DNA of 64,000 bases, taken from IMG/VR virus record IMGVR_UViG_3300044984_001421, positions 21,368 to 85,367 of that record; one strand, written 5' to 3'. The DNA comes from a virus. The notes below the pieces were generated by a model. That model was not told the origin of the DNA. It searched no databases and saw only the letters and a program-made list of their open reading frames with translations. A program made the position numbers and the translations under genes. Below, piece after piece: positions 3,499-33,050 of this stretch (the first letter of the stretch is position 1; each line of letters begins with the position of its first letter).

Positions 3499-5211
3499 TT
3501 ACACAGAGACAGACCCCGAGTAGGGCACGGCGTGCAGCACGCAGAGGATGTAGTTCAGCGGAATCACCGGGCTGCACTCGAACTCAATCCGCATCACATC
3601 GCCATCCAGCGAAACCTGGATGTTTTTGTAGGCCGGATTGATTTCGTCGCCCGCCAGTACGCCCGGTCCCATCGGTTCCGGTCGCGCCAGTTCGCGCAAG
3701 GTCGATTCGACGCGAGCGCCTGCTTCCGCCAGGATTGCCGGCGTTCCCTTGGAGCCACGCAGATCGTCTACCGCGTTGCGGACATTGCGCGCAGTGAAGT
3801 CGACCGCGAAGCCGGTGGAGACTTCGACCCGGTTGTAGTTGTCGTTGATGCGCCAGGTGCTGATCGACTTCACCACCTTGTAGCCGCGCGCCGTTTCTTC
3901 GATACACAGCACGCCGGACAGGATCAGGTCGTCGGTATCGGTCGGGTTACGCAGTTTGGTTTCCATGCCGCGTACCTTCAGCGCCTTGTTCGTCAACGAT
4001 GTGCCAGGATTGCTGCCTGCGAACGCCGCCGCGACCATCGCAGCAGTCATGTAGCTGGGATACAGCGTCAGCGCGCCGACATTGTCGTAGTCGTAGAAGC
4101 CGGGGTAGCACTGGCTGGTGCGATCGCTGTTCAGCGCCTTGGCTGCCGCCTTGGCTTCGGCGATTGTCTGGCCTGCAGCGCCACCGACAAGGCAACGACG
4201 TTCCATGCGGGCAACGTTGGACATGAACGTGCAATGCGTGTCGGCCTGGGCATGAATACTGACATCCGATGTCAGCGGCACTACCCATTGCACATCTTCC
4301 GATTGCAACGTGGTGAAAGCGGCTGCCCATTCGGTCGATGTCGTGGTGCCATTGGAACCGCCAGCCAGGTAGGTCCAGGCGACGTTATCCGGCACGACGC
4401 CGACGCTGGCCTGTCTGGTGGCGGTGACGTAGCCCTCGCCGTAGCCGTTGAACCAGTCAACAATCGCTTGCAGGTTAGCGGTGGCGGTGACGGTGGCGGT
4501 CTTGACGTCGACGTTGCTGGCGTAATCAAGACCGTTCAAAACCACTTTTTCATCATTGCCATCGAGCACCACAGCGGTGAAGCTGGACACCGAATTGATG
4601 CGGTCAACCAGTTTGCGCACGCTGTTGTAGGTGGCGAGGTCGATCGTGGCAACGACTGTTGAGTTCGGCGCTTCCAGCGTCAACGTGGTGCCGGTGATGC
4701 TCATGCGGGAGGTCGCTTGTGCGCCGGTGTAATGCACCGAGAAGGCGTCGCGGTAAACGTCATCCTGGCTGTAGTAGTCGTTGCCGACTTGCGTACTCAG
4801 ACGCTTGCCCTTGTTGGTGGCAGTCTCGACCTTGGCCTTTATCTCGTTGGTCCACAGTCCGTAATCGGTGGATTGCAGGTTGATGATGTTGGTGGCGCTG
4901 GCCTTCAGCATCAGCGCAGCCTGCACGGCAGGGTTAGCGCGAACAGCCATGACCGTACTCGGCGCGAAGGTCTGCGGAGACGGGTCAAAGGCGCGCTCAA
5001 CCGCATCCAACAGAGGACCGCTGCGCAGCATGGCGCGAGCTTCGCTGGGCGATCCAAACTTGAGCGGCGTGTTCGGTGCGCCACCTTCTGAAGTTCCAAC
5101 CAGGGCAAGGACATTCGCCACAGTCAGGTTTTTGTTGCGCATGGCGGAATCATCCACCAGCGAGGAAGTTGCGGGAGAAACCAGCAGTCGTCCGTTGAAA
5201 AATACGCTCAT
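3499..5211 (-). CDS. Contractile tail sheath protein
   Basis: 570 aa; sheath-type C-terminus (...IQVSLDGDVMRIEFECSPVIPLNYI) and LAGGSNGT motif; upstream of the tube. Confidence 0.9.
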   Translation of the reverse strand: MSVFFNGRLLVSPATSSLVDDSAMRNKNLTVANVLALVGTSEGGAPNTPLKFGSPSEARAMLRSGPLLDAVERAFDPSPQTFAPSTVMAVRANPAVQAALMLKASATNIINLQSTDYGLWTNEIKAKVETATNKGKRLSTQVGNDYYSQDDVYRDAFSVHYTGAQATSRMSITGTTLTLEAPNSTVVATIDLATYNSVRKLVDRINSVSSFTAVVLDGNDEKVVLNGLDYASNVDVKTATVTATANLQAIVDWFNGYGEGYVTATRQASVGVVPDNVAWTYLAGGSNGTTTSTEWAAAFTTLQSEDVQWVVPLTSDVSIHAQADTHCTFMSNVARMERRCLVGGAAGQTIAEAKAAAKALNSDRTSQCYPGFYDYDNVGALTLYPSYMTAAMVAAAFAGSNPGTSLTNKALKVRGMETKLRNPTDTDDLILSGVLCIEETARGYKVVKSISTWRINDNYNRVEVSTGFAVDFTARNVRNAVDDLRGSKGTPAILAEAGARVESTLRELARPEPMGPGVLAGDEINPAYKNIQVSLDGDVMRIEFECSPVIPLNYILCVLHAVPYSGSVSV

Positions 5212-5224
5212 TTCATGCTCCCGA

Positions 5225-5449
5225 TCAGTTTACAGGGCGGTCAGCGTACTCGGCGAAGGCGCGGAGGAAGCCCACGTCAACGTCCTTGTTATGCCCGCGT
5301 TTTTTTGCATCGGCGAAAAAACCGCCGATCAGTTCCACGCGCTTGTCGGTCTTCGACAGGCGTGCGCAGAACTCGTCCAACGTCAGTGATTCCGCCGCGA
5401 TTTCATCGACGGGGTTCTTGACGTCGGCTTTTCCTTCCGATTTGCTCAT
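5225..5449 (-). CDS. Small hypothetical virion-module protein
   Basis: AAGGAG RBS; 74 aa; lies between neck genes and sheath. Confidence 0.6.
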   Translation of the reverse strand: MSKSEGKADVKNPVDEIAAESLTLDEFCARLSKTDKRVELIGGFFADAKKRGHNKDVDVGFLRAFAEYADRPVN

Positions 5450-5461
5450 TGCTTTATCTCC

Positions 5462-6304
5462 TTACGGATTGATTGCTGTGGCGACGACCGGGATATCCGA
5501 AATCGTCAAGTAATCGCTGTTGCCAACGACGTTTGAGGTTGTCACGCACGAAAACTGCGAGGACGTCATGTACACAGGCGCGCTATAGCTCTCGTAATCA
5601 TTCGAGTCAGCAGACGGGGAGAAGGTCACTTCATACATTCCGTTGGCATTGAAAAGCGGGATGTTTGCGACCACGATGCGCTCAATCTCCCGGCGCAGCG
5701 TGATGCGCTCATCCGGATTCAATGCCCACCCGACAATGTGCAGCGATACCCTGCTGATCCAGCCGTCCTCGTCGCCTTGATCAAAAGAAATCGCGTCGCC
5801 CTGCCCTATCTGCGCGCCAACACTGTTTGCATCAGGCGCACCCCCGGCGAACTCGACCGTCACAACAGGCCACGCAACATCAGACGCAAGAGGCGGCGAA
5901 TTCAATACCTGAATTTTCCCGCGTGAGTGCGTCATCCGTCCGCGCGCAATCGAATCCTGCAGTCCGTAGTCGAGACGGTCGCGCATGACAGAAAGCGGGT
6001 CCGGGAAATCAATCGTGTAAGTGGACGCTGGGACCACGCTCGTCGCCGTCTCCGTCGTCCAGGACGTTCCATCAAAGAAGAACGGCTGGTAGAAGTAGGT
6101 CGTTCCATTGACCAGCGCAGAGTCATCCAGAACCACTAGCTCGGTTCCGGAATGGATGACAGACGCGGTCGGGTCATTGTGCGCGACGATGTCGTTTGTT
6201 TTTTTGCGCAGCAGCACCCAATTCACCGCGCCAGACGGCGGGCGCAGGAAAAGCCGAACGGCATTCCCGATAGGAAGTGGGTCAGTGAACCAGATTGAAG
6301 GCAT
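5462..6304 (-). CDS. Neck or tail-terminator-like protein with an N-terminal Fn3-like domain
   Basis: LVNGTTYFY is Fn3-like; WPVVTV...SLHIVGWALNPDER is terminator-like; position before the sheath. Confidence 0.55.
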   Translation of the reverse strand: MPSIWFTDPLPIGNAVRLFLRPPSGAVNWVLLRKKTNDIVAHNDPTASVIHSGTELVVLDDSALVNGTTYFYQPFFFDGTSWTTETATSVVPASTYTIDFPDPLSVMRDRLDYGLQDSIARGRMTHSRGKIQVLNSPPLASDVAWPVVTVEFAGGAPDANSVGAQIGQGDAISFDQGDEDGWISRVSLHIVGWALNPDERITLRREIERIVVANIPLFNANGMYEVTFSPSADSNDYESYSAPVYMTSSQFSCVTTSNVVGNSDYLTISDIPVVATAINP

Positions 6305-6310
6305 GACAGA

Positions 6311-6326
6311 ATCATGCCGTCACGAC
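6311..6326 (-). promoter_or_regulatory. Putative late promoter, leaderless (ATG 6304 at predicted +1)
   Basis: GTCGTGACG-GCATGAT-TCTGTC-ATG. Confidence 0.7.
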
Positions 6327-6329
6327 CAG

Positions 6330-7109
6330 CTAAGGCAATACAACCATCTGAGCGAAGTTCTGCATGAACTTCTGCTCCACTCCGCTCGCCAGGTCTCGCG
6401 CGATGTTCAACCCAGGTGTGGCGCGCACTATCCACTTCCCAGTCTGATCCTCTCGCATGACGCGGAAGGTCAGATAGGCGGACGACTTCGACTTACCTGT
6501 TGACGTGTTGAAACGAACCATGCCGGCATGAATGTCTGTCGTGTGGTGAGGCTTCAGCTTTTGAGTCAGGCCAGCCGGCAATCTACCGCCCCACTTGTAG
6601 ACACTCTGCGGCACGGTCGCGCCGGTAGCGGACAATCGTGTCTTCTTTCCGATAACAGAAGACTGAACGAGCTTCTTTGCCTGATCGTAAACATGCTTCG
6701 GCATAGCCAGCGCCAGCGCGCCATGGCCGGGCGTATTGTGACGAAACGGGATGATCAGGTACTTCTTGCCGGCCTTGGTCTGCCGCGTGCGCTGCGATGT
6801 CTGCAGCATGACCTTCAAGTCCCGCTCAGGGAAGCCAGACTCTATGCCAGAAACAGTTTTGTCTTCACTCGATACAAGCGCCGATGTGTTTCCGGTCATC
6901 CGCCACTTAATCGAGTCGATTGCTGCCTTCTTCCCATCCTCACGCACGCCAGGCGCGTGATATATGGCGAGTTGCCATGCCGTCGCAGTTTCTGCCGCCG
7001 TCTTTTCGACTGCATTCGAAACCGACTGCATCACGTCCTGAAGCATGACATCAGCCAGAGCACCAAGGTGCGTCAGGTCAATGTCGACTTTGAATGTGGC
7101 TTGCATCAC
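6330..7109 (-). CDS. Neck or tail completion protein
   Basis: Basic protein with IESG..RDLK, YLIIPFRH and YLTFRVM motifs; in the neck gene cluster. Confidence 0.55.
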   Translation of the reverse strand: MMQATFKVDIDLTHLGALADVMLQDVMQSVSNAVEKTAAETATAWQLAIYHAPGVREDGKKAAIDSIKWRMTGNTSALVSSEDKTVSGIESGFPERDLKVMLQTSQRTRQTKAGKKYLIIPFRHNTPGHGALALAMPKHVYDQAKKLVQSSVIGKKTRLSATGATVPQSVYKWGGRLPAGLTQKLKPHHTTDIHAGMVRFNTSTGKSKSSAYLTFRVMREDQTGKWIVRATPGLNIARDLASGVEQKFMQNFAQMVVLP

Positions 7110-7732
7110 CGACCGAACAGGTCAAATCGCCTGACGACAACCCGCCTGGGTAACGGCAATCCACCATGGTGAGCACGCTCTGTCGGGAGTTCCTGAAAGA
7201 CGAAATAGTCCGGATTCCAACGACCAGTCACCGTGTATTTTGTTCCCGCTGCCGGCTGCGGATCGACACCCCAGTCAATCTGTGAATTAACGATTGCACG
7301 CGCCGTTGAGTCCACAATCGTCGCGCCACTGATCCAAAAAACGCGATCAATTGAGTCTGGCGTGAACTGGATGTCATCCAGAACGCCTCTCTCCAAGATT
7401 ACGCTGAATGGCTGGGTTGCTTCAATCAGCCGAACAATGTCGAATTGGCCCATCGCATACAGCGGAGAGTCAGACGGCAGCGTCAACAACAGGTCGCCCG
7501 CCTCAAATATGCCAAAGGCGGCATATTGACGCTTTGAATGCATGCTCGATACGCCGACACGTCCAGCGACTGAAGTCTGCCAAATGCGGCCTTTGCCGGC
7601 ACAGTGTGGGCATGTCGTGCTGGCAGCGCCGGAATGGGGAGAAACGCACGGACAAGCATCTGACTTGCTCCATAGCGTGTCCTGCCCGATTCCAGCCAGA
7701 AATCCATTGAAGGCAATCGGTGATAACTTCAA
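7106..7732 (-). CDS. Head closure or neck protein with a Zn-binding CPC...CxxCxGxG motif
   Basis: CPCVS...CPHCAGKG motif; neck cluster position. Confidence 0.55.
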   Translation of the reverse strand: MKLSPIAFNGFLAGIGQDTLWSKSDACPCVSPHSGAASTTCPHCAGKGRIWQTSVAGRVGVSSMHSKRQYAAFGIFEAGDLLLTLPSDSPLYAMGQFDIVRLIEATQPFSVILERGVLDDIQFTPDSIDRVFWISGATIVDSTARAIVNSQIDWGVDPQPAAGTKYTVTGRWNPDYFVFQELPTERAHHGGLPLPRRVVVRRFDLFGR

Positions 7733-7944
7733 CTTGCGACCCCCAATGGGCGAGCATCTTCCATGTCGAAACGCTTGGTCAACGTCTCGACTGGTTCTGC
7801 AATCCCATTCCCAAGGTAACGATAGACGATTCCGTCACGGACAAATAGGTCGCCTGGGGAAAGTACCAGCCGGTTATCTTGATCCATTTCTTGCCCTTGC
7901 ATCAACACGCTTCTGCCAGTCTTGTAGGCAATCCGGGAAGGCAT
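7729..7944 (-). CDS. Small hypothetical protein (start uncertain)
   Basis: Fills the gap in the operon and overlaps the start of the next gene. Confidence 0.4.
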   Translation of the reverse strand: MPSRIAYKTGRSVLMQGQEMDQDNRLVLSPGDLFVRDGIVYRYLGNGIAEPVETLTKRFDMEDARPLGVAS

Positions 7945-8140
7945 CGCAACTCTTCATCTGCTGTCCGTGATGACTGAACTCGCATGCCTGACAAAACACT
8001 TGCAATGGTTCGCGCCGTAGCTTTTGCGCTTCGAGTGCTTGTTTAAGGTCAAGCGCCTCCCTGAACTGGGCCTGGTCGCACTCGTCCATGACATCGCGGA
8101 ATGTCCCGTTGTCTTGGTCTTCAATCATACGAACATGCAC
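7874..8140 (-). CDS. Small Cys-containing protein (DksA/TraR-like Zn finger possible; start may be MDECD)
   Basis: MDECDQAQFREALDL...CQAC...C...DCLQDWQKR pattern. Confidence 0.45.
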   Translation of the reverse strand: MHVRMIEDQDNGTFRDVMDECDQAQFREALDLKQALEAQKLRREPLQVFCQACEFSHHGQQMKSCDAFPDCLQDWQKRVDARARNGSR

Positions 8141-8907
8141 CTGATACCGTGGATCGCATCCCGCAACGCGTCCAGCTTGTCATCGATGCCATCGTGCAAC
8201 TTCTGGGTATCAACAGAAGTGCTCTGAGACAACCCATCCGCAGAAATAGAACCAGACTGCGGGAAGAACATGCCGTCAATGATGCGCAGCAGCGCCATCT
8301 TCTTGATGACATCCAGCAGGTCCGGATAGTTGTTCACGGCATCAGTCAATCCAGCCGTATAGCGAATCCTGACCATGTGCGGAACAGATCGCCCGCCGCC
8401 AATGATCTGCATCAGGTGCATGGCAATCGGCGTCGCCATCGATGCGCCGGTCGGTACGATGCGAATTTGTCCGTATTTGCGATCCATGCGTATCCAGTCG
8501 GCGGCGATGTCGAACGGGTGCGATGCGACAGCGGGGAAAACCATCTGAATGCTTTGCACGGCGATGATCGGCTTCTGGCGAGTTACGATAAAGCCCCACT
8601 TGTCGTTCTGGAACATATCTGGCTCGTAGTCATACGCAGCCTCGACCAGATGTGGGACGGTCGTGGTGACCGGCTCCGGGCCATCGCTCACCGTAGTCAG
8701 CGCGGCTATTTCGTCATCTGTCGGGTCGCCAGCAAATATCTGCGTCGGCTCGAACAGCACGCGCAACTGACGCGACGCATCCGCCTCTGCGGCTTTGTAC
8801 TGCGACCATAGGAAGCCCGCTTCATACGAACTTGGCATGGGCATAGCCATGCGGTTCAGAGAGGCTTGTAGCGCGGTTTCTGCATCAATTTGTGAAAGTA
8901 GCGGCAT
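8125..8907 (-). CDS. Head-tail adaptor (neck) protein
   Basis: VRIRYTAGL...YPDLLDVIKK and SISADGLSQS motifs; first gene after the capsid block. Confidence 0.65.
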   Translation of the reverse strand: MPLLSQIDAETALQASLNRMAMPMPSSYEAGFLWSQYKAAEADASRQLRVLFEPTQIFAGDPTDDEIAALTTVSDGPEPVTTTVPHLVEAAYDYEPDMFQNDKWGFIVTRQKPIIAVQSIQMVFPAVASHPFDIAADWIRMDRKYGQIRIVPTGASMATPIAMHLMQIIGGGRSVPHMVRIRYTAGLTDAVNNYPDLLDVIKKMALLRIIDGMFFPQSGSISADGLSQSTSVDTQKLHDGIDDKLDALRDAIHGIRCMFV

Positions 8908-8913
8908 ACGAAC

Positions 8914-8929
8914 ATCCTTTCGTCACGAC
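8914..8929 (-). promoter_or_regulatory. Putative late promoter, leaderless (ATG 8907 at predicted +1)
   Basis: GTCGTGACG-AAAGGAT-GTTCGT-ATG. Confidence 0.7.
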
Positions 8930-8933
8930 AAAC

Positions 8934-8962
8934 AAAAAGGGCCACCGAAGTGGCCCTTTTTT
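8934..8962. terminator. Bidirectional intrinsic terminator
   Basis: AAAAAGGGCCAC-CGAA-GTGGCCCTTTTT. Confidence 0.85.
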
Positions 8963-8975
8963 GTGAGCTTGCGGA

Positions 8976-9176
8976 TTAACGCTCGCTCAAGGTTTTGACG
9001 CTATGTGCCGACACAAACGTGGTCGCTGTAACGCCACCGTCCAGGTCAAGCTTCGCCATCGCAGCGTTGTGCGCCACGATCAGCTCGTCAATAACATCAC
9101 CAAGCTTCACCTTTGCTGCTGTGGGAGACATTCTGTTCAGGTCAGATTTGAAATTGCGTTTCGGCATATCCATCAC
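8976..9176 (-). CDS. Small hypothetical protein (possible head decoration)
   Basis: 66 aa; translationally coupled; downstream of the capsid gene. Confidence 0.55.
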   Translation of the reverse strand: MMDMPKRNFKSDLNRMSPTAAKVKLGDVIDELIVAHNAAMAKLDLDGGVTATTFVSAHSVKTLSER

Positions 9177-9361
9177 TCACCGCCTTTCTTTTTTGTGGCA
9201 GGCTTTTCTTCAACGGGTTCAAGCGTGTAGCCCGGTATTCCATTGAATTGAGCAGCCGCGTCATCTTCCATCACCGACTCAACGCCACCTTCAACGGATT
9301 CGAACTCGATGCCGTTGATGTTGGTGGACGCATTCGGTAACTTGCATGTTACTTTGATCAT
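9173..9361 (-). CDS. Small hypothetical protein
   Basis: AAAGGAG RBS; ATGA overlap with the upstream gene. Confidence 0.6.
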   Translation of the reverse strand: MIKVTCKLPNASTNINGIEFESVEGGVESVMEDDAAAQFNGIPGYTLEPVEEKPATKKKGGE

Positions 9362-10305
9362 CTTTGATCTCCTTTGTTTGAGATGAACGCATTTATGACG
9401 TCACGACTGAATAACTCGGTGTTTCCGTTCTCCATTATTGGCGGGCCTTGGTATTTGAGATGTGCAAAGTCGCGGTGGAATTGGCGCTCGGCAGCGCGAG
9501 CGTGTTCACCGCGAGTGAAGCGAACCTCATGGACCACTTTTGCATTTATCCCGTCACCCAGGCCAAGCCCTTGCTTCCTGAGTTTTGCCGTCCGGTTCGT
9601 TATCCCGATCTTGCACAACACATCCCCACCAGGGAGGGTGAACTCCATGCAGTACAGGATGGCTGGCTTGTCGCCATCAAATCCGTATTTGCCAAGATCC
9701 ATGTGCGCGCAGGCTTCTTCAAGGTAGCCATGCTCTATGGCGTGTTTGTAAGCGCCAGGACACCCGGAATGAAACAGGCTTCGTGTTACAAACTTTCTGG
9801 CGATCAAGAGAGCAGAAGTCTTATGCCAAGATGTTTTTGCATCCATGTGCCCAGATACAGCATCCATCAATCCGCTCCTCATCGCGTAGACGTATGCCGA
9901 TACGTTTCCTCTTCTGAACGCCGCGCGAGTTGTGTACTTTCTCGCCTCATGCGTGATTTTTTCTAAATCCCATAGTGGGTATGTTGGTGCCATGTGAGCG
10001 CATGCTTCATCCAGGAATCCATTGTCCTTTGCATGACAGTATGCCCCTGAACATTTACGCTTGAACTCACTTTTGCTTTTGTGTTTCAGCCCTTCCGTAA
10101 GCGCGGATGCCTTGTCCCAGCGAACATCCGAGTAAACCAAAGATATTTGCATGTGCGAGCAAATGCTATCCAGAATTCCGAGTCGCCATGCAAACATGTA
10201 CGCTGACTGCGAGTGGCGAGCAAACTCAGAGCGGGCTGAGAACTTCATCGCCTCAAGGCTTGCTGACTCAATTGTGAATCGCTTCTTGCGTTTTTTCTTT
10301 TCCAT
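9358..10305 (-). CDS. Putative free-standing homing endonuclease: repeated DNA-binding modules plus C-terminal GIY-YIG/T5orf172-like domain
   Basis: Four repeats of about 50 aa (A.K...R..F......AY..A...G.LD..C.HM), then LYCMEF...KIGIT...AE...H...GNTELF; codon usage differs from neighbours. Confidence 0.65.
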   Translation of the reverse strand: MEKKKRKKRFTIESASLEAMKFSARSEFARHSQSAYMFAWRLGILDSICSHMQISLVYSDVRWDKASALTEGLKHKSKSEFKRKCSGAYCHAKDNGFLDEACAHMAPTYPLWDLEKITHEARKYTTRAAFRRGNVSAYVYAMRSGLMDAVSGHMDAKTSWHKTSALLIARKFVTRSLFHSGCPGAYKHAIEHGYLEEACAHMDLGKYGFDGDKPAILYCMEFTLPGGDVLCKIGITNRTAKLRKQGLGLGDGINAKVVHEVRFTRGEHARAAERQFHRDFAHLKYQGPPIMENGNTELFSRDVINAFISNKGDQR

Positions 10306-11847: not shown

Positions 11848-12480
11848 TTACTCGGGGAGCCGAGCAAGAATGTCGCCGGGAACGGTCAGACCGTTCTCGA
11901 CAGCAACGTTGGCGCGGGCGACATCGAGTGCAGTGATGCTTCCGGCCTTTTGTGCGGTAAGACACTTCGCCATCAGGTCGCCGCTGGTAGGCTGCGGGTC
12001 TTCGGATTTGGCAAGCGTCGATGTCTTCTCGGAGATGGTCAGAACAGTCTTGCGACCACGACCTTCGCCACTCAGATCGCTCACACTCTTCTTGAGCGAT
12101 GCGATCTCGGCGGTTTGAGACTTGAGCATGTCGGCAATCAAGCCGAGAGACTTACCAAGGTGCTCGCGGTTTTCAGCGTCAGTGGACTCAATGCCATCCA
12201 TGCGCGCAGTCATCGACTTGATCAGCGCAGTTGCGTCGTAGGCGCGGACCTTCTCACCATCGCGTTCCATGCTGTAGCTTTTGCCGAGAACCTCGTCTTC
12301 ACCTTCGGCATCGCCGTCAGTGTCGCCGTCAGTATCGCCGTCGCCGTCCTTGTCTTCATCTTCGTCAACGCCTGCAGCGTTGGCGATTTTCTCGTCTGTT
12401 TCTTTGCCTTCGTCTTGCGACTTAGCAAGCAGTTCGAGGTCTTGGGCCAGCTTGTCGAATTCGCTCATTTGCGTCTCCAT
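11848..12480 (-). CDS. Capsid scaffolding protein (start may be 12468)
   Basis: Acidic and coiled-coil; many xxKS sites; between protease and capsid genes. Confidence 0.7.
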   Translation of the reverse strand: METQMSEFDKLAQDLELLAKSQDEGKETDEKIANAAGVDEDEDKDGDGDTDGDTDGDAEGEDEVLGKSYSMERDGEKVRAYDATALIKSMTARMDGIESTDAENREHLGKSLGLIADMLKSQTAEIASLKKSVSDLSGEGRGRKTVLTISEKTSTLAKSEDPQPTSGDLMAKCLTAQKAGSITALDVARANVAVENGLTVPGDILARLPE

Positions 12481-13310
12481 GTTTTCAAATCATTAAGGAA
12501 CCGCTCGACCATCTTTTTCGCCTCTGTCGCATCCATCCCGAACGTGTCAGAGACGAACTTAGTGAGCGAAGCAGGGTCGCGCTTGGGGAGAATGCTGCTG
12601 TCACGACTACGCAACATGCCAGCAAGCTTGTTGCGGAATACGTTGTAAACACCGTCATCGAGTGACTGCGCACGCAGCGCACCGCCGCCCGTCAGCGTCG
12701 CGGAATCGGTGCCGTAGCCAGCCTCAAGACCTTTCAGGACGAAAGCGTTCATGGACTTGGCGAAGACACCGAATGGCGATGTCGAGACGTTTGGAATGTG
12801 CTGGTTGACCGGCGTGCGAGACAGCGCGACGTTTGACCATCTCACCTTTTCCACACAGGTGACCGCGTTCTTGGTTTCAGGATCAATCCGGGTGGACTTC
12901 GCCAGGACAGAGCCACCGACAGACGGATACCAGCGCGCAGGCGGCGAAAGCTCGGTGAGCGACGCCCATACCATGTTCGCGTTTGCAGCCAGGGCTGTGT
13001 CACCCTTGTAGAGTTGCGCCTTGACGAAGGTCGTCTTGTCGTTGATCACGACATCGGTCGGCATGCCGATTTCATAGTTCTCCGGATTGGCGATTCCAGA
13101 ACCGGTGCGCTTGCCGAGGATGGTCAGGTGGTCAAGGTCGACGTTGCCGTACTTCTTGTAGAACTCGGCAGACTCGGCCAGCGCTTTCGACAGCACGCGC
13201 TCGCCTTGCTGGTCGATGCCTTCATTGCTGGCTTCAAAGAAGACGAAGCGCTCGCCGCCAATTTCATGCGGCGTCGCCTTGAGAAAGTCGAAGGCAATGA
13301 AGTCGTTCAT
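12465..13310 (-). CDS. Prohead maturation protease
   Basis: EASNEGIDQQGE...VDLDH...EIG...YPSVGG...NVALSRTPVN resembles HK97/Herelleviridae-type His/Ser proteases. Confidence 0.8.
   Translation of the reverse strand: MNDFIAFDFLKATPHEIGGERFVFFEASNEGIDQQGERVLSKALAESAEFYKKYGNVDLDHLTILGKRTGSGIANPENYEIGMPTDVVINDKTTFVKAQLYKGDTALAANANMVWASLTELSPPARWYPSVGGSVLAKSTRIDPETKNAVTCVEKVRWSNVALSRTPVNQHIPNVSTSPFGVFAKSMNAFVLKGLEAGYGTDSATLTGGGALRAQSLDDGVYNVFRNKLAGMLRSRDSSILPKRDPASLTKFVSDTFGMDATEAKKMVERFLNDLKTWRRK
12592..12607 (-). promoter_or_regulatory. Variant late promoter inside the protease gene, upstream of scaffold and capsid
   Basis: GTCGTGACA-GCAGCAT: one mismatch, conserved A and T retained. Confidence 0.55.
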
Positions 13311-21814: not shown

Positions 21815-21891
21815 GGGTAAAGCATATCACGCCGCGCGGGCGAAGCAACTCAAATAAAAAACAGAACAATTTAATTATCTAACATTTCTGT

Positions 21892-21919
21892 TTGCTTTAT
21901 AACAAAACTGTTATAGAGT
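21892..21919 (+). promoter_or_regulatory. Sigma70-type promoter with a palindromic operator in the spacer
   Basis: TTGCTT-16 nt-TAGAGT; palindrome TATAACA-AAAC-TGTTATA at 21898-21915. Confidence 0.7.
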
Positions 21920-22826: not shown

Positions 22827-22858
22827 AACATAATTGTTTTATTTCTTAACTTTTCTGT

Positions 22859-22886
22859 TTGCTTTCTAACAGTTTTGTTATAAAGT
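22859..22886 (+). promoter_or_regulatory. Second copy of the promoter/operator cassette
   Basis: TTGCTT-16 nt-TAAAGT with TAACA-GTTT-TGTTA; downstream leader resembles the first copy. Confidence 0.7.
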
Positions 22887-27416: not shown

Positions 27417-27781
27417 GCAACAAGCACTACGCGGAACGCGACGCCATGGAACAGGGGCAGTTCTACATCGACCACGTCATGGCAATGACAGCAGAGGAAC
27501 TGCACAGCAAGGCGGACATCGCCGCAGAGTTAGCGCACCGAGACATCATCATCAAGAACCTCGAAAACCGCCTCGCTGTCTGGGAAGCCGGCACTGCTGC
27601 GGACATCTCGCGGTCGATGATCAAGACGGCAGACAAACTCATGCAGGAGCGCGATGCCATCAAGTCCGCGCTCTCCGATCTGCTGTTTGTCATCAACCCG
27701 GACAAGGACGGGTCGTTTTTCATCTGCGAAGAAGGAGCGGTAATTATCGCTGCCGCGCGGATTACATTGGAGGAATCATGA
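27413..27781 (+). CDS. Conserved phage hypothetical protein (YAERD...HV.AMTAE.LHSK.DIAAELAHRD type)
   Basis: Recognisable phage motif; coupled ORF. Confidence 0.65.
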   Translation: MSNKHYAERDAMEQGQFYIDHVMAMTAEELHSKADIAAELAHRDIIIKNLENRLAVWEAGTAADISRSMIKTADKLMQERDAIKSALSDLLFVINPDKDGSFFICEEGAVIIAAARITLEES

Positions 27782-28002
27782 GCGAGAAAAACACAGGCGG
27801 GCCGGCGTTTCCGTTTGCATTTGCAGATGAAGACCGGGTTAGTGATGGCATGACCATGCGCGATTACTTCGCGGCGAAGGCGATACCTTACGCACAAGAA
27901 TCAGGTTTCTATGACAAAACAAAGCCTGGAACTTGGGCAGAACAGGTTGCGGTTGAGTGCTATGAGATGGCCGACGCAATGCTGAAAGCGAGGGAAGCAT
28001 GA
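27778..28002 (+). CDS. Conserved phage protein (GGPAFP...GMT.RDYFAAKA...ADAMLKAR type)
   Basis: Recognisable phage motif; GGAGG RBS. Confidence 0.75.
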   Translation: MSEKNTGGPAFPFAFADEDRVSDGMTMRDYFAAKAIPYAQESGFYDKTKPGTWAEQVAVECYEMADAMLKAREA

Positions 28003-28083
28003 GCCGGCCAGGACAAGGAACAGACATCAAGGTCGCCAGCCCGGCATGCCGGATGTTCGAGCAGAAATAACCGTTTTTTTATG

Positions 28084-28112
28084 TTGCTTTATAACAGTTT
28101 TGTTTGTACTGT
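28084..28112 (+). promoter_or_regulatory. Third promoter/operator copy; probably leaderless (ATG 28119 at +1)
   Basis: TTGCTT-17 nt-TACTGT with TAACA-GTTT-TGTTT. Confidence 0.65.
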
Positions 28113-28118
28113 AAGCGC

Positions 28119-28313
28119 ATGGACAGAAAAACAGCCATCCAGGTAATCAAGGTCGCCGGATACCACGGTGATACGAAAACATTCATGCGGACCTACTGCG
28201 AGAACAGGATCAGCTTCGCCGTCGCGGATAACTTCTTCCGCAAGGGTAAGCAAGCAAAGCTGGCCGGCATGAAGTGCGACTGCAACCAGTGCAAGAAGGA
28301 GAAAGGCGAATGA
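28119..28313 (+). CDS. Small basic protein with a C-terminal CxCxxC
   Basis: ATG 7 nt after the -10 element; coupled to the next gene. Confidence 0.6.
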   Translation: MDRKTAIQVIKVAGYHGDTKTFMRTYCENRISFAVADNFFRKGKQAKLAGMKCDCNQCKKEKGE

Positions 28314-28546
28314 GCACGCACACGGTCTTACAGTGCCACAAAACCAAGTGGCACAAGAATCCGGTGTCAGGTCACGAATGGCCTGAATTCACGTTCATCA
28401 ACCGCTGGCAAGTTCAGGGCGGTGTGGCGCTTGGCGAAGTCTTCTTCAGCGAGAAAGCTGCGCAGAAGCATGCCGACTTCCTCAACAAGTTCTGCCCGCC
28501 TGAATACATCAAGCGCATCCAGGCGATAACTGCACCGAAGGAGTGA
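28310..28546 (+). CDS. Hypothetical protein
   Basis: ATGA overlap; RBS. Confidence 0.55.
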   Translation: MSTHTVLQCHKTKWHKNPVSGHEWPEFTFINRWQVQGGVALGEVFFSEKAAQKHADFLNKFCPPEYIKRIQAITAPKE

Positions 28547-28547
28547 C

Positions 28548-28895
28548 ATGGACAACAACAAGACCGCACTCATGCTATCCCAGGCCATACCGATGGGAGA
28601 GCACGACAACCCGCACGGAGAATGGATTCGGGTCCGTCTCGACGTTGTTCTTGACGCCATCGAGCAACTCAAAGACGCGGCACGTTACCGCTGGCTGATG
28701 GAGCGGATGCAGGAAGTCTATGACGGCGCTAACTATGACATTGGTCATGTCGACATAAGCTGCATGATGATCTTCGGCCGCAAAGAAGTGCGTCGCGTGT
28801 CGGCAGAAATTAGCTGGTTCGATGAGCGAGACGAAGACCTCAACTTGAGCTCGGCAATTGACCGCGAACTCCAACAACCAACAACAAAGGATTGA
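28548..28895 (+). CDS. Hypothetical protein (KDAARYRWL motif type)
   Basis: AAGGAG RBS; common phage motif. Confidence 0.65.
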   Translation: MDNNKTALMLSQAIPMGEHDNPHGEWIRVRLDVVLDAIEQLKDAARYRWLMERMQEVYDGANYDIGHVDISCMMIFGRKEVRRVSAEISWFDERDEDLNLSSAIDRELQQPTTKD

Positions 28896-28897
28896 AG

Positions 28898-29260
28898 ATG
28901 TGGATCGCACTTAATAACAGCTTCTTAAGCATTGTCCGAAAGCAGCCGCGCGACAAGTTCCTGACCGTCCGCGCCAGGGTTGCTGGCGACATTGAGCGCG
29001 TGTTCCCGGACGCTAAGGTCCAGGTCGGAGGCGGAACGGATTACAAGTTCCGCGCGCAGATCGGCGATAAGGTCGTGGCGGATGCCATCGCAAAGCAGAT
29101 CAAAGGCATCAGCTACGGCAACTTTAAGGACAGCGTGCAGGACGATGACCGGCACGATGCCTACTTCAACGTGTGGCGCGCGATGATGGCGATGCAGAAG
29201 ATGCCAGTCGACCACCGGCAAGATGCGATGTTTGACTTCTACGAAGACAGTGTCGATTGA
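28898..29260 (+). CDS. Conserved hypothetical protein (MWI...FLSIV...VRAR...DY.FRA...Y.NFK type)
   Basis: AAGGA RBS; recognisable motif pattern. Confidence 0.7.
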   Translation: MWIALNNSFLSIVRKQPRDKFLTVRARVAGDIERVFPDAKVQVGGGTDYKFRAQIGDKVVADAIAKQIKGISYGNFKDSVQDDDRHDAYFNVWRAMMAMQKMPVDHRQDAMFDFYEDSVD

Positions 29261-29262
29261 TT

Positions 29263-29326
29263 ACGCAACGCTGGCGTAACCGGCGCGCAGCGAAGCGGAG
29301 CGTCCGCGTTGACGCAAATGTTAGAA
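29263..29326 (-). repeat. attC site 1
   Basis: Minus strand TTCTAAC-ATTTG-CGTCAACG-CGGACGC...GCGCCG-GTTACGC-CAGC-GTTGCGT, with the extra C in L'' and extra A in GGACGC. Confidence 0.8.
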
Positions 29327-29344
29327 CTCAGGAGGGAATAGACC

Positions 29345-29551
29345 ATGCAACTCAGAGAGGGCGAAGTGGCTTTTGTGATGGCGCAAATTGCGCTGCTGAA
29401 CTGCGAAGTGGCTGGCATGCAGGCCGAAAACACGCACCGCCTGAACTGCGGAAATTCCGTTGCCTACGGCGCGGACGAGTTCGCGGCCGTGCGGCAGCAG
29501 TACGAGGCGCTGATCGGCAGCAACGCGATCTTAGAGATGGCGCGGTCATGA
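29345..29551 (+). CDS. Cassette 1 gene, hypothetical
   Basis: AGGAGG RBS; bounded by GTTAGAACTC (29320) and GAGTTCTAAC (29550). Confidence 0.7.
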   Translation: MQLREGEVAFVMAQIALLNCEVAGMQAENTHRLNCGNSVAYGADEFAAVRQQYEALIGSNAILEMARS

Positions 29552-29575
29552 GTTCTAACGAATGACGTGTTAGCC
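29552..29575 (-). repeat. Collapsed attC (outer R boxes only)
   Basis: GTTCTAAC-GAATGACGT-GTTAGCC; both R boxes match the far ends of the neighbouring cassettes. Confidence 0.6.
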
Positions 29576-29609
29576 ACGACACGCTAAAACGTGGCACCAC
29601 TGAGAGGAT

Positions 29610-29978
29610 ATGAACGTGCGAACTTTGACTGACCATAAGATTAACCCCGGCAATGACACGCTGACCATTACCGTGCTGGACGAACCTGGGCACGGTGGAG
29701 CAAACCACGCCTACGACATCGAAGGTGGCGAGGCGGTACCGACGCACCTGCGCTTTCAAAACGGCCCGATCAACGCGGACGGCAACGGCGTGAATGGCAT
29801 TACTCACGAGGCGTTGCTTGCGGTGCTGTGTGACCGCCTGCGTGGGTTCCAGGCGGGGCAGTATGCCTGCAAAGCGAACGCTTGCGCACTGACCCACCTG
29901 GAAGAAGCACAGCACTGGCTGCAACAGCGCACCATCGAGCGTATGCGGCGTGGCGTCGAAGGCACGCACACGGTTTGA
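29610..29978 (+). CDS. tad1: Tad1-family anti-defence sponge protein (anti-Thoeris/anti-CBASS)
   Basis: G.GGA.H.Y.I...FQ.GP...LL....DRL..FQAG....NACALTHLEEA..W...R...R..RGVEGT matches the Tad1 pattern as I recall it. Confidence 0.85.
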   Translation: MNVRTLTDHKINPGNDTLTITVLDEPGHGGANHAYDIEGGEAVPTHLRFQNGPINADGNGVNGITHEALLAVLCDRLRGFQAGQYACKANACALTHLEEAQHWLQQRTIERMRRGVEGTHTV

Positions 29979-30014
29979 TGTTATGGCCGGCATGACGACG
30001 CGAGAACTCATGCC

Positions 30015-30105
30015 GGCTAACGAACCAGCTAAGTGGCGCGCGTGACCAAGCCAAACGAAGCTGCGCCGGATGTTCGCGCGTCCCGCCTTGAGCGCCTTGT
30101 TGGGC
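30015..30105 (-). repeat. attC site 3 (long loop)
   Basis: Minus strand GCCCAAC-AAGGC-GCTCAAGG-CGGGACGCGCG...CGCGCGCCA-CTTAGCT-GGTTC-GTTAGCC. Confidence 0.85.
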
Positions 30106-30269
30106 TTCTCTGGGCGATCATCTGGCGTCGATGGATGACTGGGCCTGGCGGTCACAAGCGGCGAGTGGTGCGCGTTAAGGGGTGGCGCACAGCCATCGTC
30201 GAGAGCGACTGGGAAATGCGCGTGACGGTGACGCCGTGTTTCTCGGTTTTTGGATGGCGGTTCGATTGA
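30033..30269 (+). CDS. Cassette 3 gene, hypothetical; starts inside attC (GTG 30033 or 30042)
   Basis: Only ORF filling the cassette; stops just before the next core site. Confidence 0.5.
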   Translation: MARVTKPNEAAPDVRASRLERLVGLLWAIIWRRWMTGPGGHKRRVVRVKGWRTAIVESDWEMRVTVTPCFSVFGWRFD

Positions 30270-30273
30270 TGAC

Positions 30274-30341
30274 GCCGAACGCCTAGCTAACCGGCGCAGG
30301 CGGCCTTATCGCCTGCGTCCGGGTTGAGCGACGTGTTATGC
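30274..30341 (-). repeat. attC site 4
   Basis: Minus strand GCATAAC-ACGTC-GCTCAACC-CGGACGCAGGCG-ATAAGGC-CGCCTGCGCCG-GTTAGCT-AGGC-GTTCGGC. Confidence 0.87.
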
Positions 30342-30364
30342 CTTTGACAACGAAAGGATGCGCA

Positions 30365-31048
30365 ATGGAACACACAAAAGAGCGTTGGGAGTGGTCGGAG
30401 CACAAATTCAACGCGCCGCCGTTCGAGGGGACACTTGACCACGAATGCGGCATTTACCCACCAGACGGCGAGAGCGGCCCTGTGGCGATAGCCAGCGGGA
30501 AGAACGACGCACGGCGCATTGTGGCTTGCGTGAATGCTTGCGCCGGAGTGACGACGGAAGAACTTGAGCAGGGCGGGTTTGTTTCTGGACTGATTGAGCA
30601 GCGCGACGAGCTTGCAAAACTGTGCAACTACAACGAGCGCTTGATGCAGGACTGTTTGCGCCTGGCCGAAGAAGCGCCGCGCTGGCGTGATGTGGTTGAT
30701 GAGCTTCCGCAAGAGGCGCAAGAAGTGCTGTTTGTGCGTGACGGAAAGACAGTTCACGGCGCGTGGATTGGCGGGATATTCTGGCACAGCAACAAGAAGA
30801 TGGCCGCTGCGCAATGGATGCCACTGCCGAAACCGCCAACGGCGGCGCTTGCGAGACGGCGGCCTGTGGCGTGGATTCGGTTTTGCAGCGACGGATGCTA
30901 CGAGGGGCCGATCATGGACGCACAGATTGAAGATGTGCGAAAGCAAAGCGGGGCATGGACTCCGCTCTATAAGCACAACGACTTGCGACTGGTGCAGGTT
31001 GGTCCCTGCACATGCAGCGACCACGAATGCGGGGAGTGCATGCGATGA
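30365..31048 (+). CDS. Cassette 4 gene A: mosaic phage protein with a DUF551-like module
   Basis: NDARRIVACVNACAG motif; WRDVVDELP..AQEVL...QWMPLPKPP; AAGGA RBS. Confidence 0.7.
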   Translation: MEHTKERWEWSEHKFNAPPFEGTLDHECGIYPPDGESGPVAIASGKNDARRIVACVNACAGVTTEELEQGGFVSGLIEQRDELAKLCNYNERLMQDCLRLAEEAPRWRDVVDELPQEAQEVLFVRDGKTVHGAWIGGIFWHSNKKMAAAQWMPLPKPPTAALARRRPVAWIRFCSDGCYEGPIMDAQIEDVRKQSGAWTPLYKHNDLRLVQVGPCTCSDHECGECMR

Positions 31049-31287
31049 ACTTCGACGACTGGATGGCTACGCAAAACCCTAAGTACATGCCGACCGACGA
31101 CACTGTGGCGCTGAGGTTGCTGCGCGATTGCTGGAGAGCGGCGGAGTTCCACAGTGATAGAGCGCAGGAGCGCGAGCGGATGATTGCACTGATGCGAGAT
31201 AAGTGCAGGAAAGTCGGCGCTGACAGGACGGCGGCACCTCATGGGCGTTGCGGCATACCAGGAATGCTTGGACACCATGAGGCATAA
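31045..31287 (+). CDS. Cassette 4 gene B, hypothetical
   Basis: GGGGAG RBS; ATGA overlap; stop TAA lies within the core site GCATAAC. Confidence 0.55.
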   Translation: MNFDDWMATQNPKYMPTDDTVALRLLRDCWRAAEFHSDRAQERERMIALMRDKCRKVGADRTAAPHGRCGIPGMLGHHEA

Positions 31288-31318
31288 CGCATGAGACACA
31301 GCAGAATTGACGTATAAC
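31282..31318 (-). other. attI-like or insertion end of the cassette array
   Basis: Core GTTATGC (minus strand) with no attC hairpin and a direct GTTATAC repeat 30 nt upstream. Confidence 0.45.
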
Positions 31319-31335
31319 TGCGAAATCTAGATGTT

Positions 31336-32559
31336 TTACTTCATGCCAGCCTTGCTGATGACATCGTGATCTGCTTCGCTATCCAGATACAGATGAAGAT
31401 CTGACTCTGGAACAAGATGCGCTGCCTGGCTCTCCCAGCCAACGTCCGCAGGCGTTCCTCCGACACGAACCGCATGATAGTAGCGTGTTACAGATGACGT
31501 CCGGTCGACGTCACAGGCATAGCCTACGATCTTCACCTTCAGGCCGGATTCTTCGAACACTTCCTTGATGGCATTCGCCTGCCAGGACATCTCGTCCTCG
31601 ATTTTCCCTTTAGGGAACGTGTTTTTATAGCCGCCGAACTGGTTGGTCGGAGACACCAGCCAGACACGACCATCCGGCTCTTTGATGATGCAGCCTGATG
31701 CCGGCTTGAGTCCTTGCTTCAGATGCATGACAGGCTCGTCCAGGTCTTCCATCTGCCCTTCGACGTAATCCCACTCTTCGTCGGTCTTGGGATGATCCAG
31801 CCAGGGTGACAACGCGAGTCCGTTCAATTCGTCCGGGCAAGCGCCACCAGGGATGAACGTCGCCGTCTTCTTCTGGTCGTGCCAGGTTTCAGGCGCAGTC
31901 TGATGATTCGGGTTGTAGATCCCGACCGGCTTACCGTTGTCGCCGTTCTTCGGGTGGTAGACCTTGGGCGGCGCTTTCGGCAGCGTGTGGAACAGGAACG
32001 AGCCGCCACCCATGCCGTACTGCGGCGCGACAATCTTCTGGTGCGGCTGCGTACTCAGTTTCTTGATCTTGCCGGAGTCGGTGTGCTTGATGCGGAACAG
32101 CGATCCTTGGCGCTCGTAGTCCTTGACGACCGTGCCGTCCTTCTTTGTGTGACCGTGGACGTGCGACTTCGCCATCGTCTCGCCACCGGCAAGCATTTTG
32201 TCTACTGCCTTCTTTGCGTCTTCAATGCCGCCAGGATTCGCCCATGCCTGCGCACGGTAGTGGTCAGAGGACTTCTCTCCGGTGGATGGGTTGACGACCA
32301 GTTTGTAATCATGCCGGTCGAGTATCTCGAACACCGTGGTAACAGTTTTCTTCGTGCCAGCCTTCATCTGCCCAAACACAGATTTTGTTGCCTTTTTCGA
32401 GCCTTCACGCTTGAACACGCGCAACCGAAAGCCACGATACGGCTCGCCGACGTTGTGCTCAGTTCTTGAGTCCTCATGGGCGCGAACGGCTGTGCCGTCT
32501 TTGCGCACAAAGCCGTGGACGTGCGACTTCAACAACCCGGAGTCGGTGACAACGATCAT
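31336..32559 (-). CDS. Tagged polyprotein ending in a NUDIX hydrolase domain
   Basis: Two tags (LLKSHVHGFVRKDG, MAKSHVHGHTKKDG); Nudix box FPKGKIEDEMSWQANAIKEVFEESGL; ATGA overlap with the upstream gene. Confidence 0.85.
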   Translation of the reverse strand: MIVVTDSGLLKSHVHGFVRKDGTAVRAHEDSRTEHNVGEPYRGFRLRVFKREGSKKATKSVFGQMKAGTKKTVTTVFEILDRHDYKLVVNPSTGEKSSDHYRAQAWANPGGIEDAKKAVDKMLAGGETMAKSHVHGHTKKDGTVVKDYERQGSLFRIKHTDSGKIKKLSTQPHQKIVAPQYGMGGGSFLFHTLPKAPPKVYHPKNGDNGKPVGIYNPNHQTAPETWHDQKKTATFIPGGACPDELNGLALSPWLDHPKTDEEWDYVEGQMEDLDEPVMHLKQGLKPASGCIIKEPDGRVWLVSPTNQFGGYKNTFPKGKIEDEMSWQANAIKEVFEESGLKVKIVGYACDVDRTSSVTRYYHAVRVGGTPADVGWESQAAHLVPESDLHLYLDSEADHDVISKAGMK

Positions 32560-33050
32560 GCCGGCATCCTTTCTTCTGCTCCCATCAGAACTTTGACCGC
32601 GTACTGCAGCGACGGCTTGAGCATCACACCAAACAGCATGTCGTCGCCATCGGCCAGCTTCCACTTCTCGATAACCAGCGCAGCCAGCCAGTCGAACAGG
32701 ACCGCGACAGGATCATCGGCGAACTCATGCCGGTGAGCATGCCAATGCGGTCCCAGGTCAATCTTCAGCTTGTTGCCCAGCGTGAAGTCGTTATAGCCAT
32801 TGATGATGCTGTAACCAGGGTCACGCCCGGAGAAGATGCCGGCCAGACGGGTGATCTCAGAGCCAAGTTCAGCATGCGCAGAATCTCCCGGAACCTCTCC
32901 GGAAGACGCTGCCATGGCAATCGCTTCAACCTTGGCGGCGAATCCACCAACCAAGCCGGCGACTACATCAGGATTGCCAAGACTGGTCGCGCTTGACGGG
33001 TCCGAGAAGGCTCCTGGCGATACACGATAACGGTCTCTTTCTTGTCCCAT
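32556..33050 (-). CDS. Hypothetical protein between the kinase/ART polyprotein and NUDIX
   Basis: AAGGAG RBS; overlaps the 3' end of the giant gene. Confidence 0.6.
   Translation of the reverse strand: MGQERDRYRVSPGAFSDPSSATSLGNPDVVAGLVGGFAAKVEAIAMAASSGEVPGDSAHAELGSEITRLAGIFSGRDPGYSIINGYNDFTLGNKLKIDLGPHWHAHRHEFADDPVAVLFDWLAALVIEKWKLADGDDMLFGVMLKPSLQYAVKVLMGAEERMPA

Follow-up and report, generated by a model that had tools for sequence, protein, structure and literature searches.

An integrase-less integron cassette array with genes inverted relative to attC in a phage early operon

The stretch of DNA analysed here (the window) comprises 64,000 nucleotides (nt) and corresponds to bases 21368-85367 of the 85,367-nt IMG/VR virus record IMGVR_UViG_3300044984_001421. 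Positions 29263-31335 of the window are a four-unit integron-type cassette array without its own integrase, i.e., a cluster of attC sites lacking integron integrases (CALIN), in a phage early operon. A first reading made from the letters alone (the sequence-only reading) had proposed that the cassettes of this region are inverted relative to their attC sites, and the strand of the attC bulges together with the strand of the genes confirms this. Each unit is laid out with attC first and the gene second, the mirror of classical cassettes. The best explanation, which we hold to be very probable, is a CALIN of four mirror units that comes from a family of phage integrons carrying intI. The interpretation attached to the sequence-only reading is partly supported; its core, namely the strand, the attI side and the reversed logic, stands, and the reversed logic is seen in the relatives.

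Imperfect short hairpins, bordered by ..AAC and GTT.. boxes, are located between the plus-strand open reading frames (ORFs) of the array. An attC site's bottom strand is described as 5'-R'(..AAC)-spacer-L'-loop-L''-spacer-R''(GTT..)-3' (Nivina 2016, PMC5027507), and its length is given as 57-141 nt (PMC5371416, PMC5027507). Two of the hairpins, A and D, possess this architecture and fall inside this length range:

attC site A: 29263-29326, 64 nt, plus strand as bottom strand; with ACGCAAC as R' (29263-69) and GTTAGAA as R'' (29320-26)
Bulges of site A: G29311, C29307 and T29303, plus strand, at positions 16, 20 and 24 from the 3' end of R''
attC site D: 30274-30341, 68 nt, plus strand as bottom strand; with GCCGAAC as R' and GTTATGC as R''
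Bulges of site D: G30326 (position 16), G30322/3 (20) and T30318 (24), plus strand, counted from the 3' end of R''

The spacers of A and D are 5 nt on both sides. As the bulges of both sites fall on the plus strand under the rule of Nivina 2016, the plus strand is the bottom strand and the minus strand is the classical top strand. The crossover would lie between 29268 and 29269 in site A and between 30279 and 30280 in site D. The purine/pyrimidine consensus of the R and L boxes is matched only in part (ACGCAAC, GTTAGAA). The two sites are 948 nt apart with no intI nearby, as is typical of a CALIN.

Unconstrained folding of the single sites gives z-scores of -0.5 to -2.8 relative to shuffles, and the minimum-energy folds of A are not of the attC form. 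Folding of both strands had been suggested as a way of assigning the recombinogenic strand, but the strands of A and D differ by only 0.7 and 3.3 kcal/mol, respectively (RNA parameters), so folding does not decide between them. A rule-based detector was adopted instead and places both sites on the plus strand. Its pattern is composed of AAC, a 4-6 nt spacer, 12 paired bases plus bulges, a second 4-6 nt spacer, and GTT. A and D are its only matches without mismatch in the whole 85,367-nt record, and first-order Markov shuffles gave no such match (0/12). At two or fewer mismatches, the record contains 14 matches, compared with 2-10 in 10 shuffles. Site D is also 98.4% identical over 62 nt to an attC of another viral array (L010/G001; L denotes loci and G records).

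The orientation of the detector calls was controlled on other integrons. In the class 1 plasmid integrons L090 and L091, both calls (2/2) share the sense strand of intI1, opposite to the genes annotated in the cassettes, dfrA14 and a cupin gene. Shewanella phage M16-3 has 7 of 8 calls on the intI strand with genes opposite, which is the classical arrangement. Among 31 scanned bacterial loci with relatives of the phage IntI, 21 yielded a total of 48 calls, and 46 of these match the sense strand of intI. The detector also recognised the reverse geometry of Virus Rctr41k, where the attC sites are downstream of an integrase-like gene and their bottom strand is opposite the genes.

The cassettes of the array are as follows:

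Cassette 1: 29269-29558, plus strand; attC A, then ORF1 at 29345-29551 (68 amino acids, aa); ends in GTTCTAA|C
Cassette 2: 29559-30020, plus strand; ORF2 at 29610-29978 (122 aa, Acb2/Tad1-hairpin family), then a 3' hairpin at 29984-30017 continuing into its GGCTAA|C end box
Cassette 3: 30021-30279, plus strand; possibly gene-less, or with the doubtful ORF3 at 30033-30269 (GTG start, 78 aa)
Cassette 4: 30280-31287, plus strand; attC D, then ORF4 at 30365-31048 (227 aa) and ORF5 at 31045-31287 (80 aa); ends in GGCATAA|C

Coding on the plus strand is supported for four of the five ORFs by homologues, composition, or a ribosome-binding site. ORF1 is preceded by the ribosome-binding site AGGAGG and scores +18.7 in the codon test, in which its antisense ORF scores -35.3. 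ORF2 has 2924 homologues, and PF24729 (Acb2/Tad1 hairpin domain) is present in 120 of the 120 matches listed; in PHROGs, it matches phrog_2428 at 8.8e-33. ORF4 has 156 homologues and a codon score of +26.1, against -23.4 for the antisense frame. These homologues are mostly 130-170 aa long and cover either ~70% or ~30% of ORF4, which for this reason looks like a fusion of two modules that are separate elsewhere. ORF5, whose ATG overlaps the stop codon of ORF4 (ATGA), has homologues in 66 representative clusters, mostly aligned from residue 1, and scores +2.3, against -17.9 antisense. ORF1, ORF3, and ORF5 have no match in PHROGs or Pfam.

Long antisense frames are present at 29352-30155 (267 aa) and 30287-31024 (245 aa) on the minus strand. 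Both cross attC sites and have negative codon scores. The guanine plus cytosine (GC) content by codon position of unit 4 is near-equal on both strands, and its strand is settled by homologues and codon scores. In the classical order, attC comes after its gene, which is encoded on the attC top strand. The array in the window departs from this, with genes encoded on the bottom strand and attC ahead of the gene. The sequence-only reading had put the attC top strand on minus and every cassette ORF on plus. The strand and four of the ORFs agree with it, and "every" goes too far in view of ORF3.

The units also possess complementary end boxes, which are an integron cassette signature. In unit 1, the boxes GTTAGAAC (29320-27) and GTTCTAAC (29552-59) are complementary at 8/8 positions. 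The same is true of 8/8 positions in unit 4 (30335-42 and 31281-88), 7/7 in unit 2 (29569-75 and 30015-21), and 5/8 in unit 3 (30072-79 and 30274-80). A chain of complementary end boxes of this kind is also observed in G001. Complementarity reads the same from either strand and therefore gives no orientation. The remaining two internal sites and the far end of the array are the following:

Site B: 29552-29575, plus strand; an R' box, 9 nt (made up of the final 4 nt of L'' and then the spacer), and R'' GTTAGCC
Site C': 30015-30078, plus strand; R' GGCTAAC, an L'-like AGCTAAG, a stem of 5 base pairs (bp) only (CAGCT/AGCTG), and an R''-like GTTCGCG
End E: 31288-31335, plus strand; the non-hairpin, attI-side end, followed by the stop codon of a NUDIX gene

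Even with 5 mismatches allowed, the detector recognises neither B nor C' as attC. A locus with a 99% identical gene, L008, has a full attC that closes with the same GAATGACGT and GTTAGCC as site B; as the full site ends in the 9 nt of B plus GTTAGCC, B is an attC from which the hairpin was deleted. C' was rejected as a functional attC because its stem is lost and 5 mismatches do not suffice to detect it. No homologue of C' was found among the loci compared. In L013 (G002, ~2936-2990), the attC before the Tad1 gene has collapsed a second, independent time, leaving a different remnant behind the same GTTCTAAC end box. The two collapses suggest recurrent hairpin loss, or selection that fuses both cassettes.

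Related viral arrays reveal the mobile unit. Around Tad1-type genes in viral contigs (80 loci), 36 of 37 attC calls are on the strand of the gene, with 10 calls from L010 and 6 from L026. Among copies of the Tad1 cassette, homology is confined to the interval between the AAC of the attC before the gene and the downstream GGCTAA|C, and the DNA outside is unrelated. These limits define the mobile unit as attC, leader, gene, and end box, with AA|C crossovers on the plus strand. The type of attC covaries with the type of 5' leader among these copies. Of 23 attC-bounded viral units, 13 are coding on the bottom strand, 1 on the top strand, 7 are ambiguous, and 2 have no ORF. Bacterial units located next to intI (n=20) have their longest ORF on the top strand in 17 cases. 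The Fisher p-values for this contrast, 0.0013 by longest ORF and 0.00085 by codon score, are generous because units of one array are not independent.

Some of the related viral contigs encode an integron integrase. L014, identical to L098 (record G003), encodes a true IntI with 465.9 bits to TIGR02249 (cut-off 265) and 58% identity to IntI1. G003 is a real phage fragment with terminase gpA, a VapE-like primase, RusA, and a C5 methylase, and it carries 45-46% homologues of two early genes of the window. The L098 intI and the cassette genes share a strand. The intI start codon is 30 nt past the stop codon of the last cassette ORF, behind a separate ribosome-binding site, and the RusA gene comes next, its start codon overlapping the intI stop codon. 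Because intI is co-directional with the cassette genes, the geometry of intI, attI, and attC in L098 is classical, and the genes alone are flipped. L103 has the same geometry, with an IntI 67% identical to that of L098. In L105 (46%, partial), a plus-strand cassette gene and end box directly precede an intI-like gene; no attC was detected on the plus strand of this locus.

Five contigs encode an identical IntI and share their sequence from the C after AA through attI and intI. To the left of this common part are three different cassettes (L098 = L099; L100 = L101; L102 with a PTPS gene). As the five contigs differ exactly there, cassette turnover is placed at the intI-proximal, i.e., promoter-distal, junction. 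By geometry, this junction corresponds to 31287|31288 in the window. The sequence-only reading had identified the non-hairpin end as the side where a classical array would begin, and the intI of the relatives (L098/L014, L103, L105) is exactly at the equivalent of 31288. It had also expected new cassettes at the distal end of the operon. The three versions of the phage integron bear this out in the relatives, since they differ exactly at the intI junction. Judged by its own refuting condition, the entry of new cassettes at the 29263 end, the sequence-only reading is thereby favoured.

The cargo of these phage integrons includes a PTPS/QueD-like gene as first cassette (L102 136-486; PF01242, 9e-32). 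Further cargo stretches are located at L092 9288-10100 (minus strand) and L098 4596-4970. A 270-aa cargo gene in intI-bearing phage integrons has weak DHH/DHHA1 matches just under the Pfam cut-offs. The PTPS-like and DHH-type cargo hints at putative counter-defence functions, either DNA modification or signal degradation.

End E of the window does not fold into a hairpin (z +0.28 and +0.64). It contains a ..TATAAC box that ends 31 nt after the crossover C, which is all that it has of attI-like features. In attI1 of a class 1 control, the DR1 box ..GTAAC ends at +33, and boxes are located at +33 in L012 and at +33 and +45 in L014. This DR1-like distance is a weak hint that E may be an attI remnant.

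The array is located at the 3' end of a tightly packed set of small plus-strand genes (28119-31287). A convergent minus-strand NUDIX gene (31336-32664, PF00293) abuts it, with its stop codon at the array edge. On the minus strand, the NUDIX operon is directed into the array, and no terminator-like site is present between them. Upstream of the plus-strand operon is a further element:

Promoter/operator-like element: 28084-28112, plus strand, upstream of the operon 28119-31287; repeat family D1, putative function

The 28084 element has two further copies, starting at 21892 and 22859, and its full 29 nt are unique at 3 mismatches. The sequence-only reading had taken it for the promoter of the genes; the sigma-70 scan does not call it. 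Near E, where that reading supposed no Pc, the same crude scan calls no promoter-like site. A classical cassette promoter (Pc) reads away from the attI side and cannot serve these genes, so read-through from upstream phage promoters is most likely. A 21-nt element recurs at 21872-21912, 22839-22879, and 28084-28112, each time before a plus-strand gene block and twice in tandem within a 76-nt repeat. This three-copy element is a candidate promoter/operator family.

The completeness of the record is estimated at 93% by CheckV, so a small part of the genome is unseen. DNA of this phage is present in lake-water metagenomes, with 24 runs listed and at least half of the sampled words found in 14. 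The record is that of an uncultured lake-water phage, probably a temperate one.

Logan contigs from 4 of the 24 lake runs were aligned at 85% likeness. Depth over attC A reaches 381.5 in run X10, compared with ~6-8 for most flanking phage bins. Loose contig ends at 29267, 29324, 30278, 30290, and 30338 coincide with the R-box edges of A and D and with a point inside the L' arm of D. Sites A and D occur in many other contexts in lake metagenomes, and the foreign sequence behind their R'' boxes again contains a ribosome-binding site and ATG on the plus strand. A contig of X15 joins 31231, 26 other letters, and 30278, i.e., an ORF5-like unit followed by a D-type attC in another cassette order. 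No contig joint across the whole array was found among those listed for the four runs; contigs break at the attC repeats, and empty sites are not addressed by these data.

The empty junction predicted by the sequence-only reading was not found in GenBank phages or in viral or metagenome contigs, among which there is no near relative. GenBank phages gave no match to the array region by megablast or blastn. The flanking NUDIX protein has one locus in viral contigs, at 44%, without an empty junction. The left flanking protein has homologues in 5 viral loci (41-53%) and 57 metagenome loci (42-72% over the best segment), and no array follows the homologue in any of them. Over the flank-homologue loci, the detector gave 3 sporadic matches in 263,165 nt and 0 in L002-L007.

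Several observations weigh against reading the region as a mobile array of mirror cassettes. Of the four internal sites, A and D alone are intact attC. The record has no integron integrase; its best TIGR02249 match, at 14.4 bits (cut-off 265), is an ordinary PF00589 phage integrase 42 kb away, and mobility at this locus is consequently inferred from the relatives. End E matches none of the attI sites compared, and an exact search for it in viral contigs gave 0 matches. The viral arrays are not purely mirror-oriented, as G001/L010 has at least one top-strand (classical) unit and 7 of 23 units are ambiguous. By codon score, the bacterial units divide into 6 top, 1 bottom, and 13 of 20 ambiguous. 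The codon classifier was trained on GC-rich phage genes with no held-out test. ORF3 lacks a ribosome-binding site, and its codon score of +2.5 and 3 homologues leave it doubtful. The detector missed other annotated attC sites of L091, so its sensitivity is low.

Two of the rival explanations concern the identity of the elements. The cassettes could be classical, with genes on the minus strand of the window and the plus-strand ORFs as chance frames of GC-rich sequence, as the 267-aa and 245-aa minus frames and the near-equal GC by codon position of unit 4 would allow. However, those minus frames run across attC sites, codon scores favour plus in all pairs tested, and the plus-strand ORFs have homologues, a Pfam family, ribosome-binding sites, and the stop/start overlap of ORF4 and ORF5. 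The plus-strand cassette genes of the relatives are Pfam-supported as well (PTPS in L102, 9e-32), and the classical arrangement is very improbable. Equally, the hairpins might not be integron sites and might instead be phage intergenic terminators or an attC-like repeat family of another kind. Free folding is only weakly better than in shuffles, and B and C', half of the internal sites, do not conform to the attC pattern, which would suit such hairpins. Yet the rule for boxes, spacers, and bulges is obeyed exactly by A and D, as it is by none of the 12 shuffles, the unit end boxes are complementary, and the hairpins have no T-run behind them. In the relatives, a bona fide intI is flanked by sites of this architecture, with cassette turnover at its attI, and we give a non-integron origin almost no credence.

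The third alternative accepts the cassettes and takes the array for a fossil that arrived by recombination or mosaicism from an intI phage, or by a single IntI insertion at a GWT-type attG, so that E would be a mere junction with no cassette gain at either end. The lack of intI in the record, the collapse of B, and the decay of C' fit this, as do an E unlike every attI compared and the lack of an array behind the distant left-flank homologues (57 metagenome and 5 viral loci, 41-72% aa identity over the best segment). The reconstructed target has GTT on the minus strand and fits the attG GWT consensus described in bioRxiv 10.1101/2022.09.11.507474, a text that also raises the domestication of inserted cassettes and mentions folded attC sites. 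Against a fossil, A and D are intact and near-identical to sites of other arrays (98.4% for D), so attC x attC exchange with IntI supplied in trans could still take place. E has a box at the DR1-like distance, and the orientation and the operon-end position are shared with the intI-bearing relatives. A fossil is therefore conceivable, on balance doubtful.

A CALIN descended from an intI-bearing phage integron family thus remains the preferred explanation. The mobile unit is composed of attC, a 5' leader with a ribosome-binding site, the gene, and the end box, with the plus strand both recombinogenic and coding. In the phage-integron family, intI would be promoter-distal, co-directional with the cassette genes and close behind them, and new cassettes would enter beside intI. 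The phage of the window would have kept the array and the attI-side junction and not intI. With one attC collapsed and one decayed, two or three cassettes are probably turning into fixed phage genes. Further exchange would need IntI in trans from the host or a co-infecting phage. The cargo suggests a counter-defence role, with a predicted Tad1/Acb2-type sponge here and a PTPS/QueD-like gene and a weak DHH-type match in the relatives.

A wider proposal, for which we consider the case evenly balanced, is that a freshwater phage-integron lineage runs backwards. In this lineage, attC would precede the gene, early promoters would transcribe toward a co-directional intI, and cassettes would enter at the promoter-distal end. 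Transcription would possibly expose the non-template bottom strand, and a counter-defence pool would be exchanged among co-infecting phages. The window would represent an integrase-less, partly fixed offshoot.

The array resembles classical integrons in its R and L boxes, 5-nt spacers, bulges at 16/20/24, lengths of 64-68 nt, complementary end boxes, and AA|C bottom-strand crossover. The IntI of the relatives is 58% identical to IntI1 and encoded beside attI, and the attC bottom strand is the intI sense strand. The differences are that the phage cassette genes are on the bottom strand and point toward intI, with no Pc evident, and that the intI of the relatives is 30 nt past the last cassette gene in a co-directional phage operon. 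Inverted single cassettes with their own promoters, e.g., toxin-antitoxin cassettes, are known from chromosomal integrons as a self-expressed minority of classical arrays. What they have in common with the present cassettes is a gene antisense to its array. In the viral records, by contrast, the mirror layout prevails (13 of 14 confident calls), and the short leaders contain a ribosome-binding site only. Cassettes that face the promoter are described as never observed in mobile or chromosomal integrons (Nivina 2016, PMC5027507).

Reverse integrons of the Treponema denticola type, as described in PMC4909258 and PMC4889954, also have intI and cassette genes in the same direction. They differ in that the intI/attI/attC geometry of the L098 type is classical and the genes are flipped instead. 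The inverted integrase of reverse integrons is absent from these loci; the window has no intI, and in L098 and L103 the intI sense strand is the attC bottom strand and intI follows the array, as in class 1. Insertion at secondary attG sites (bioRxiv 10.1101/2022.09.11.507474) is comparable in that cassettes are off-platform, beside GTT, expressed from a neighbouring promoter, and tend toward domestication. In contrast to what that text describes, the window has a four-unit array with an attI-side end, in the position and orientation seen in intI-bearing relatives. An attG origin of the array is conceivable.

Qi et al. 2023 (PMC9892861) describe 17 CALINs in phages, the recombination of 5 of 6 phage attC sites by IntI1, and anti-restriction-type cargo (methyltransferases). 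As phage CALINs and integrons have been published there, attC sites in a phage are not new. The window shares with those CALINs an attC cluster without integrase inside a phage. It differs from the typical same-direction arrays described, and the main text of that paper is silent on gene versus attC orientation. In the open-licence PubMed Central and bioRxiv literature searched, supplements lying outside the scope, no array was found that is mirror-oriented as a rule and has its intI downstream of, and co-directional with, the cargo. No phage integron with counter-defence cargo was found in the same literature.

In the classical rule, bottom-strand selectivity sets promoterless genes behind Pc, and the newest cassette is expressed best. 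Here, the recombination geometry is kept and the genes are flipped, across several phage lineages. If this is true, expression would depend on the early promoters of the phage itself, the newest cassette would be transcribed last, and intI would be located downstream of co-directional cargo. It would represent a second, phage-adapted use of the integron and a natural test of the attC features that fix orientation. The putative mobile pool of small counter-defence genes could be mined by attC flanks. The position of attC 5' of the gene in these units also bears on how cassettes are made.

In Virus Rctr41k (KX853513, also L235), the region 4680-10101 contains a gene annotated as "xerD", whose product shares 44.7% identity with the phage IntI, and downstream of it seven attC-like sites of ~130 nt, with their bottom strand opposite to co-directional genes. 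This region of a deposited virus genome looks like an inverted-integrase ("reverse") integron. The main text of Qi 2023 does not name Rctr41k.

With 10 detected attC, the array of G001 is the largest. Just past its attI-side end, on the same strand (L089 1246-2190, G001 ~11893-12837), is an ordinary phage integrase (PF00589, PF22022, PF14659) and not an IntI. The tyrosine recombinases of this phage and of G001 were considered as divergent IntI and rejected, as both are ordinary PF00589 members (14.4 and 21.9 bits to TIGR02249).

A 37-nt stretch of the Tad1 cassette (29985-30021) is identical to L105 4902-4938, where it belongs to a different cassette (82-aa gene) and directly precedes the intI-like gene. 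It forms a perfect 10-bp GC-rich stem with a 12-nt loop that runs into GGCTAAC, with no T-run after it. Other Tad1 cassettes have different hairpins at this place. The stretch may be a modular 3' element of these cassettes.

Outside the array, positions 27800-28133 have a depth of 107-210 in X10, compared with ~7 for most other phage bins. Many loose contig ends are observed at 27846/7, 27884, 27957-68, and 28002, and some variants skip 80-86 nt (from 27881/4 to 27965/8). The 74-aa gene at 27778-28002 seems to be a widely shared, variable module.

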